Shown piece by piece: positions 31,967 to 32,770 of a stretch of 64,000 bases of DNA. The notes under the pieces were generated by a model. That model was not told where the DNA came from. It saw only the letters and a list, made by a program, of their open reading frames with translations, and did no database searches. Numbering within the stretch: the stretch's first letter is position 1; each line of letters begins with the position of its first letter. The stretch comes from Escherichia coli. GTDB lineage: Bacteria > Pseudomonadota > Gammaproteobacteria > Enterobacterales > Enterobacteriaceae. The DNA lies in NCBI RefSeq assembly GCF_030384885.1, contig NZ_CP128613.1, one strand, 5' to 3'. A program made the translations under genes and the position numbers.

Positions 31967-32770
31967 CTAAATTATATTATTCATATCTATTGAATATCCT
32001 GCCTCTTTTAATTCTCTTGCTAAACGCATTTTCCACCCTTCATTAGAGTCTATTTTTTCATACGTAATACCAAGAGCATCAGTTGGAATTTCGATATCTC
32101 CCTTTATGAGAACCATTGTTTTTTCTCTACCTAACAATGCGGTAAAATATCCAAGTTCGAGAATGACATTCTGACGGGCTCGAAGGCTTTTATTTTGCTC
32201 ATTGTTAATCGGGTATCCATAATCATCGGGAGTCATCAAGATTACTGCAAAACCCGCTCTTTTTGCAAACTCCTGAAACTTTTCAATTATGGTCATTCCT
32301 TTGTTTATTTGCTCTTGTAAAATGACGGGTTCAACGCCCAGTTTTTCTAGAAATCTCGCAACTGAATGTTTTGTGCCTTCATCATGACCATGAACTAAAA
32401 AAACTGAATTACTTTCAGGTAATTCGGTTTTTAATTCTGATTCATCAAATTTTTCGGCAGTGAATACACCTTCAGTTCCAATGCTAGATCTCCATTTACC
32501 TCTTAATTTATTATTATTGACTAAGCTACAAATTACCGTAACTTTCCCTAACATAACCATCGGGTTTTTATTTCCGGGAGTTAGTTCAATAAACAGGTTT
32601 TCGCTTATTTTTCCTGAAATACTGTATTCATATGCTCCAAGTGCAAGTTCATGTATCTTCGCTGAACCGCTTACATTATTACCGTCTACATTTAGAGTAA
32701 AACTAATCCCACCTTGGTTGGTTCCGGAGATATCACCAGTCCAATAGCCTGAATATACATCATTTAGCAT
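31967..32770 (-). CDS. TIR-like domain protein with uncharacterised N-terminal beta-rich domain
   Basis: C-terminal domain begins VFLVHGHDEG and contains ILMTPDDYG...RARQNVILELGYF motifs typical of the TIR-like nucleotide-binding family; ATG 32770 preceded by GAGGGGAG RBS. Confidence 0.55.
   Translation of the reverse strand: MLNDVYSGYWTGDISGTNQGGISFTLNVDGNNVSGSAKIHELALGAYEYSISGKISENLFIELTPGNKNPMVMLGKVTVICSLVNNNKLRGKWRSSIGTEGVFTAEKFDESELKTELPESNSVFLVHGHDEGTKHSVARFLEKLGVEPVILQEQINKGMTIIEKFQEFAKRAGFAVILMTPDDYGYPINNEQNKSLRARQNVILELGYFTALLGREKTMVLIKGDIEIPTDALGITYEKIDSNEGWKMRLARELKEAGYSIDMNNII

Follow-up and report, generated by a model that had tools for sequence, protein, structure and literature searches.

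A standalone gene joining a β-barrel to a TIR domain on an Escherichia coli mobilizable island: a candidate single-gene anti-phage system

The window analyzed here, a 64,000-nucleotide stretch of Escherichia coli DNA (contig NZ_CP128613.1 of RefSeq assembly GCF_030384885.1), contains an integrative mobilizable island that carries, at positions 31967 to 32770 on the minus strand, a gene for a 267-residue protein with an N-terminal eight-stranded β-barrel and, at the C terminus, a TIR domain. We refer to it as the barrel-TIR gene. Both domains are conserved across phyla, the barrel recurs in front of many other effector types, and the gene occurs as cargo of mobile elements. A model that had read the sequence alone (the first-pass annotation) had proposed either an uncharacterized single-gene anti-phage system or an extra TIR sensor that feeds a signal to the Thoeris protein ThsA. 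Because its TIR domain is of the abortive-infection type, the gene stands alone, and it behaves as a moron of mobile elements, the former is most likely the best reading of the sequence. On balance, we judge the barrel-TIR protein to be an autonomous, single-protein anti-phage effector of the abortive-infection type that travels as mobile-element cargo.

A TIR domain of the CBASS/Pycsar effector clade

Two start codons are available to the open reading frame (ORF). The first ATG would give 276 amino acids (31967-32797, minus strand), and the inner ATG at 32770 gives 267. Because full-length homologs have 265 to 270 amino acids, the inner ATG, with its GAGGGGAG ribosome-binding site, is the right start, and the coordinates proposed in the first-pass annotation were correct. 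The C-terminal motifs that it quoted are present, and its assignment of this half to the TIR-like domains of abortive-infection effectors is borne out by Pfam, PADLOC, and PDB matches.

Pfam PF10137 (CAP12/Pycsar effector TIR), a family that forms the CBASS/Pycsar effector clade of TIRs, aligned with residues 123 to 241 of the protein (model positions 2 to 118 of 119; E = 3.2e-37). In PADLOC, five PDC-S35 hidden Markov models (HMMs) scored best (E = 6e-68 to 3e-45), followed by CBASS "Effector TIR" models and PycTIR (E = 1e-8). The matches of all five PDC-S35 HMMs start at about residue 86 or 110 and end at residue 266; the best profile aligns positions 110 to 262 of its 264 with residues 112 to 266, leaving about 110 N-terminal positions unmatched. 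The NCBIfam Cap12 equivalogs reached 39.1 and 34.9 bits, far under their cutoff of 450. By sequence, the closest solved TIR domains were those of TIR-STING ("Cap12"; 9lmq and 7un8; E of about 1e-5) and PycTIR (8jsj). A full-length AlphaFold2 model (predicted local distance difference test [pLDDT] score of 81) matched TIR-STING (E = 3e-6), SPARTA TIR-APAZ, and SARM1 in Foldseek. Glu205 aligns with E86 of ElSTING (9lmq), which is the catalytic residue of that protein (PMC12421889), and is thus the putative, conserved catalytic glutamate of a TIR NADase.

Conservation is uneven along the protein. Within the barrel-TIR family, sampled across phyla, mean pairwise identity is 74% in the TIR domain, 52% in the barrel, and 32% in the linker between them. 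The C-terminal tail (72%) has an invariant G245 and W246 and predicted helices at residues 245 to 256 and 263 to 266. A Klebsiella "nucleotide-binding protein" is 97% identical, and the full-length barrel-plus-TIR architecture is kept at 57 to 72% identity across several phyla. When 100,044 species genomes were scanned, 547 stretches encoding relatives were recovered; among the best 80 of these 547, about 19 encode the full-length architecture and the rest encode the TIR half only, at about 50% identity. The gene is absent from 5,426 complete E. coli genomes, where matches to the query are confined to its integrase end.

The TIR half is already known, and PADLOC flags it as the candidate PDC-S35. 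PDC-S35 belongs to a set of 145 untested "phage defence candidates" nominated by guilt-by-embedding (bioRxiv 10.1101/2024.01.29.577857). Like the barrel-TIR gene, PDC-S35 systems consist of a single gene with a total length of about 230 to 280 amino acids; barrel-TIR has only the effector half in common with them and is a distinct architectural subfamily. Escherichia phage vB_EcoM-689R2 encodes, with a DNA polymerase gene on one side and a nuclease gene on the other (locus L016, 2737-3498), a PDC-S35-like TIR protein with a different, nonbarrel N terminus (…YRLTNGVIVNLYTTRTIQFQG…), which we take to resemble the TBP-like motif at the N terminus of RNase HIII. Because the N-terminal domain of this phage protein differs, the PF10137 TIR half swaps its N-terminal sensors. 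For PADLOC users, PDC-S35 is really a family of effector domains whose N-terminal sensors can be exchanged.

The N-terminal barrel as a reused module

The first-pass annotation described a novel, β-rich N-terminal domain of about 130 residues that matches nothing recognizable. The domain is indeed β-rich, but it spans about 110 residues (7 to 108). No family matched this segment in Pfam, PADLOC, NCBIfam, or PDB sequences, and a profile of the barrel gave only chance-level matches against PDB sequences (pokeweed antiviral protein; E = 0.21). It is a widespread, conserved domain nonetheless, as the profile search described below established. The barrel is predicted with confidence and consists of eight consecutive antiparallel strands (pLDDT, 91.5; predicted template modeling score, 0.83). 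Seventeen barrel positions are invariant across the full-length family, and the signature reads W10xG12x3G16-T17-N18xG20 ... D/E41 ... G91xW93xS95xxG98-T99xG101xF103. The strand 1 GxW motif of the lipocalin-like/calycin fold is present as an invariant G8-x-W10. Its fold is one used by binders of small ligands: structural matches included barrels designed to bind DFHBI, the cyclic-dinucleotide receptor Cap15, avidins, lipocalins, and lipocalin-like domains, and a Foldseek search of AFDB50 returned the barrel's own relatives first, followed by lipocalin-like, DUF2147, and DUF1579 domains. As modeled, the fold is of the generic calycin type. Strand and loop topology would place loops 1-2, 3-4, 5-6, and 7-8, which include the GTNxG, D/E41, and GTxG elements, at the end of the barrel opposite the termini. 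In calycins, that end is the ligand mouth.

A word-indexed homolog search with the N-terminal domain alone returned one fragment and was replaced by an exhaustive profile search of 1.84 billion cluster representatives (clusters at 50% identity). The profile found at least 416 representatives, 198 of them at E values of ≤1e-10, and so the domain is not novel in the sense of being unique to this protein. The barrel was nearly always N-terminal. Clustering of the sequences that follow it, with subsequent annotation, sorted its partners into several types. The largest group (48 representatives) comprises proteins of about 345 amino acids that end in two or three C-terminal transmembrane (TM) helices, and a second TM-bearing group has 6. 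The PF10137 TIR of the barrel-TIR family accounts for 16, a second TIR/deoxyribosyltransferase-like type for 8, and a ThsB-like TIR_2 for 4, among them P0133 (PADLOC ThsB; E = 6.5e-24). Six more are KAP-family NTPases of 700 to 1,070 amino acids. Further partners are a PD-T4-6-like Ser/Thr kinase and a DUF4062-TPR protein, and AFDB50 adds fusions to FRG and DUF805 domains. Whatever the effector, the barrels share the signature WxGx3GTNxG ... D/E ... GxWxSxxGTxGxF. The nearly constant N-terminal position and the variety of effectors fused to the barrel fit a sensor module, which is what we propose it to be. In the literature that could be searched, neither the barrel nor its role as the common front end of many effector types is described, and we found no paper on an architecture combining β-barrel, TIR, NADase, and anti-phage function. 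The TIR survey from the Sorek laboratory explicitly set standalone TIRs aside.

Two variations on this theme were seen. A metagenomic KAP-NTPase-like protein of 1,070 amino acids (P0122) has two tandem N-terminal barrels, at residues 2 to 105 and 130 to 238. Standalone barrels of 107 to 117 amino acids also occur (P0148, loci L099/L100, 4001-4354; P0125, locus L098, 88-411), one of them with a PIN_12 gene before it and an RNase H gene 140 nucleotides (nt) after it. Such standalone barrels could be members of split sensor/effector pairs, decoys, or sponges.

Genomic setting: swappable cargo without a partner gene

As the first-pass annotation had it, the gene is wedged between a pilV-like gene and the integrase of the island (Table 1). 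It lies 126 nt downstream of the integrase gene, in the same direction, and its G+C content is 35.6%, compared with 48% in the integrase gene and the chromosomal flanks. A σ70-like promoter match upstream is a candidate only, because promoter-like sites are no more numerous there than shuffling predicts. The claim that a bidirectional terminator isolates the gene needs correction. A stable hairpin does form on both strands of the spacer between the convergent genes (plus strand, -22 kcal/mol, z = -3.5; minus strand, -16.5 kcal/mol, z = -4.0), and it was judged by folding because a terminator scan of the spacer (31760-31966) made no call. The scan passed the hairpin over because its T-run is weak, and no real one lies on the barrel-TIR gene's own strand.

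The host chromosome matches E. coli strain 2013C-4282, a strain with an empty serU-zinT interval, at 100% identity over the msrPQ-hiuH stretch. Judged against E. coli 2016C-3878 and Klebsiella, the island has, besides its relaxase, genes for the pilus pair PilS/PilV and for a TraD-like protein. It also carries the Thoeris pair reported in the first-pass annotation, a complete type I system with a G+C content of 32%, which is real and lies 8.3 kb from the barrel-TIR gene (the estimate had been about 9 kb). Among island ORFs of at least 120 amino acids, thsA, thsB, and the barrel-TIR gene were the only ones with strong PADLOC matches. Elsewhere in the island, the octamer TTAGCTCT is repeated in tandem about seven times at positions 17990 to 18053, between minus-strand ORFs at 17455-17934 and 18127-18684; this tract could be phase variable or iteron-like.

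Relatives of the locus indicate that the gene is exchangeable. In Klebsiella pneumoniae, the 97%-identical gene adjoins the same PilV/PilS/TraD/relaxase set, and in E. coli 2016C-3878 a sister island that occupies this chromosomal site has a VOC-family gene (locus L014, 6391-6918) between pilV and the integrase gene; this slot is therefore a cargo-exchange site. In Erwinia and a related metagenomic contig, the barrel-TIR gene lies in a P2-like prophage, with gpS on one side and gpV on the other. Phages ENT90 and 186 have nothing in that slot, and other cargo fills it in Yersinia phage vB_YenM_06.16-2 (locus L017, 1157-2218) and in E. coli phage vB_EcoM-613R3 (H36, "YjcF"). With unrelated cargo from phage to phage, the gpS-gpV slot of these P2-like elements acts like a hotspot for morons and is a promising place to look for defense genes. 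The barrel-TIR gene itself behaves as a mobile-element moron, a piece of swappable cargo.

No neighboring gene family is conserved across 24 full-length barrel-TIR loci, in agreement with the earlier description of a single, standalone gene. Neither a cyclase nor another synthase is adjacent in these loci or in the loci of the TM, KAP, and kinase variants, and tblastn did not find ThsA or ThsB in 29 homolog loci totaling 300 kb. A conserved partner gene was rejected as a general feature of these loci; a small HExxH gene lies downstream in only 6 of the 24. This gene encodes a small HE[FL][RV]HV protein with a weak match to eCIS_core/DUF4157, is codirectional, and starts 60 to 120 nt after the barrel-TIR gene. 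Its carriers are nitrifiers, Nitrospirae, Thermodesulfobacteriota, and Rhodocyclaceae, and it occurs neither in enterobacteria nor in the window; the protein may be the partner in a two-gene variant. Two other homologs are followed directly by a match to another untested PADLOC candidate, namely, PDC-S21 (SIR2-like, DUF4917; locus L021, 7907-8992; E = 5e-108) and PDC-S13 (locus L037, 7872-8711; E = 7e-117), which suggests that some homologs lie in small defense islands.

TABLE 1 Coordinates of the barrel-TIR gene, its parts, and associated features (window positions unless a locus is named)
Feature	Position	Strand	Remarks
Barrel-TIR gene	31967..32770	-	Intact ORF, 267 codons plus TAG stop; from ORF list and translation
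C-terminal helical tail, GWKxxLAxELKxAG	31970..32038	-	Residues 245-267; conserved
TIR domain, Cap12/Pycsar type, proposed NADase effector	32039..32410	-	Residues 121-244; Pfam, PADLOC, PDB
Glu205 codon, putative catalytic glutamate	32156..32158	-	Motif RxRQNV(I/V)LELGYF, invariant in 44 homologs
Linker, poorly conserved	32411..32446	-	Residues 109-120; low pLDDT in full-length model
Eight-stranded up-and-down β-barrel, proposed sensor module	32447..32752	-	Residues 7-108
Shine-Dalgarno-like GAGGGGAG	32775..32782	-	4 nt upstream of ATG at 32770; read from sequence
σ70-like promoter match TGGACT-18-AATAAT, extended TG (candidate)	32888..32917	-	Overlaps integrase stop codon; consensus scan 9/12
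GC-rich hairpin AAAGGGCC-GTGA-GGCCCTTT, 8 bp	31920..31939	both	Between convergent pilV-like and barrel-TIR genes
PilV-type gene	30323-31759		Convergent with barrel-TIR gene
Tyrosine integrase of island	32897-34114	-	NCBIfam integrase domain, E = 3e-41; E. coli relatives annotated tyrosine-type recombinase/integrase
Island, integrative mobilizable, 22.4 kb	11884-34292		At tRNA-Ser(CGA)/serU
Distal att repeat CCCTCTCTCCGCCA, 14 nt	34279..34292	+	Equals tRNA-Ser(CGA) 3' end at 11870-11883; bounds the island; direct-repeat family D5
MobQ relaxase	26888-28369		On island
ThsA, SIR2-SLOG, 489 amino acids	21608-23077	+	PADLOC E = 9e-203
ThsB, TIR, 203 amino acids	23094-23705	+	PADLOC E = 1e-85
HE[FL][RV]HV gene, locus L019	3868-4329
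HE[FL][RV]HV gene, locus L020	2737-3198
HE[FL][RV]HV gene, locus L024	7841-8401
HE[FL][RV]HV gene, locus L030	7882-8538
HE[FL][RV]HV gene, locus L032	2523-2984
HE[FL][RV]HV gene, locus L034	3176-3637

A proposed mechanism, its alternatives, and known systems

The identities of the two domains, their conservation, the modularity of the barrel, and the mobile setting without a partner gene are shown; from these we infer a role in defense, together with a substrate, a ligand, and an oligomerization step, along the following lines. In the uninfected cell, the barrel-TIR protein would be monomeric or autoinhibited. Upon infection, a cue would bind the barrel at its conserved open end, the favored cue being a small conserved molecule or a ligand resembling a nucleotide. 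Binding would drive oligomerization, bringing TIR domains head to tail to form composite active sites; NAD+ would be hydrolyzed, and the infected cell would arrest before phage release. We propose this sequence because PycTIR has the same layout and TIR-STING works likewise, through filaments. A small, conserved ligand is weakly favored over a fast-evolving phage protein because the barrel is 52% identical across phyla and its polar signature stays constant across effectors.

Several observations weigh against this interpretation. The BB-loop aromatics W34 and F39 of ElSTING contact the ribose and nicotinamide of NAD+ (PMC12421889), and the corresponding positions in the barrel-TIR protein are L151 and N156. 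The BB loop, PVILQEQINxGMT, is invariant within the barrel-TIR family but differs from that of ElSTING, and it is modeled with a pLDDT below 50 at residues 153 to 157. Because the aromatics are not conserved, NAD+ is not assured as the substrate. PDC-S35 is itself a guilt-by-embedding candidate, its HMMs match the TIR half only, and no paper naming PDC-S35 or a barrel-TIR system was found in the literature searched. Several homologs sit amid housekeeping genes, as in Opitutus or, in another case, beside dnaN-gyrB. As for the barrel, its fold is generic, so that ligand binding is something we infer, and its conserved residues were placed at the mouth from topology rather than from coordinates. 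Nor did comparisons establish its homology to a proven nucleotide receptor. PF18153 (S-2TMβ) gave no match at E values of ≤10; hhalign of the barrel with VnOptE (Panoptes supplement) gave a probability of 7.5%; a 164-sequence barrel profile aligned with the OptE-family alignment at 30% (E = 5e-4, 54 columns); and Cap15 was not among the barrel's top 50 AFDB50 Foldseek matches. On these results, we do not claim homology of the barrel to the Cap15/OptE receptors.

It is improbable, in our estimate, though the fold makes it plausible, that the protein is instead an orphan receptor-effector, whose barrel binds a nucleotide second messenger made in trans and whose TIR domain serves as a second NAD+-depleting arm. 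The messenger could be glycocyclic ADP-ribose (gcADPR), the product of the island's own ThsB, or a cyclase product of a CBASS, Pycsar, or type III CRISPR system; in an inverse, Panoptes-style variant, a constitutive ligand would hold the protein off until phage sponges released it. The barrels of Cap15 and OptE do bind cyclic dinucleotides and can signal in either direction (PMC12657218, PMC12657230), the barrel's partners (TIR and TM modules) mirror CBASS and Pycsar effectors, and the island has its own signal-producing Thoeris system at a distance of 8.3 kb. However, the loci surveyed, both the 24 full-length ones and those of the TM, KAP, and kinase variants, have no adjacent synthase; ThsA and ThsB are absent from the 29 homolog loci; sequence homology to S-2TMβ is not demonstrable; and a prophage moron that needed a host synthase would often be useless after transfer.

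Quite unlikely, too, is a function other than anti-phage defense, either as a toxin-like module that stabilizes or benefits the element (by addiction or competitor exclusion) or as a nucleotide- or nucleoside-processing enzyme controlled by a metabolite-binding barrel, in which the TIR/deoxyribosyltransferase-like fold has a non-NAD+ substrate. The missing NAD+-binding aromatics of the BB loop would suit such an enzyme, as would related barrel fusions that are annotated as, or score weakly as, nucleoside 2-deoxyribosyltransferases. The embedding of some homologs among housekeeping genes points the same way, and 74% identity of the TIR half across phyla is unusually high for a defense gene. Set against this are the patchy distribution by horizontal transfer and the prophage moron and island cargo slots, the match of the TIR half to models built from genes embedded in restriction-modification, BREX, and DISARM loci, and the other partners of the barrel (TM modules, KAP NTPase, and PD-T4-6-like kinase), which are typical effectors of conflict systems.

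The other proposal of the first-pass annotation, one more ThsB-like TIR, sensing phage and producing the signal that activates ThsA, is very improbable: a complete type I Thoeris system does share the island, Thoeris loci are known to have several ThsB genes, and a few barrel fusions (e.g., P0133) bear a ThsB-like TIR_2, but this TIR belongs to the PF10137 effector clade and matches neither the ThsB model nor PF08937, the gene lies on the strand opposite thsAB, 8.3 kb away, with the MobQ relaxase and pilus genes in between, it has a different G+C content and a cargo slot of its own, and its homologs, including the same gene in P2-like prophages and housekeeping settings, have no Thoeris nearby (ThsA and ThsB being absent from all 29 homolog loci).

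A broader idea, which we regard as doubtful though worth stating, is that the barrel marks out a large superfamily, so far without a name, of small-molecule receptors in the cytoplasm that arm many single-protein killing modules (the three TIR types, TM modules that would disrupt membranes, KAP NTPases, kinases, and DUF4062-TPR) without a dedicated synthase. Such receptors could sense a conserved, infection-linked metabolite or nucleotide that is made by the phage, is another immune signal (e.g., that of Thoeris), or is a housekeeping ligand lost during infection, as in Panoptes. If this were true, they would constitute a "synthase-less" branch of nucleotide- and metabolite-sensing immunity. 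Should the barrel-TIR gene, read as an autonomous effector, prove protective, it would be a compact single-gene TIR system of 267 amino acids found on P2-like prophages and mobilizable islands of Enterobacteriaceae, and a function would be provided for a sensor domain that recurs in hundreds of protein clusters, joined to most of the classic effectors of abortive infection, and has no name in the databases. The barrel's ligand, once identified, would show how a cyclase-less sensor-TIR works and would annotate all sibling architectures.

Among known systems, PycTIR, TIR-STING, and TIR-SAVED share the logic proposed for the barrel-TIR protein, which differs in having another, unnamed sensor and no dedicated signal synthase. 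PycTIR (8jsj) likewise has an N-terminal β-rich ligand-binding domain and a C-terminal PF10137 TIR, and cUMP bound to its N-terminal domain triggers oligomerization and turns on the TIR NADase (PMC11224242). Its sensor, however, is a CRP-type domain binding cyclic nucleoside monophosphates (cNMPs), whereas that of the barrel-TIR protein is an up-and-down barrel of about 110 residues. The barrel-TIR protein has no cNMP_binding match in Pfam, the PADLOC PycTIR model matches it in the TIR half only, and no PycC cyclase is adjacent to the gene in the island (PADLOC scan) or in the 24 loci; it is not a Pycsar member. TIR-STING/Cap12 (7un8, 9lmq/9lmr) and TIR-SAVED contain the closest solved TIRs, and their catalytic glutamate is also found in the barrel-TIR protein. 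TIR-STING filaments assemble composite active sites (PMC12421889). The domain order of TIR-STING is the reverse, with its TIR N-terminal, and the barrel-TIR protein has no STING or SAVED domain in Pfam and no CD-NTase found adjacent in the island or the 24 loci. ThsB of Thoeris is of the PF08937 or PADLOC ThsB type, of which the barrel-TIR protein has neither (PADLOC at E values of ≤1; Pfam).

With regard to the barrel itself, the S-2TMβ barrels of Cap15 (7n34) and OptE have the same three-dimensional fold. They differ in that S-2TMβ proteins have two N-terminal TM helices, whereas the barrel-TIR protein has no TM-like segment and the TM-bearing relatives of its barrel have C-terminal helices; in addition, S-2TMβ systems have a CD-NTase or mCpol partner, which barrel-TIR lacks. 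Lipocalin-like/calycin barrels (DUF2147, DUF1579, and avidins) are only 13 to 21% identical in sequence to this barrel. Most calycin-type proteins are single-domain binders that are secreted or are lipoproteins, whereas the barrel described here is a cytoplasmic module at the N terminus of effectors.

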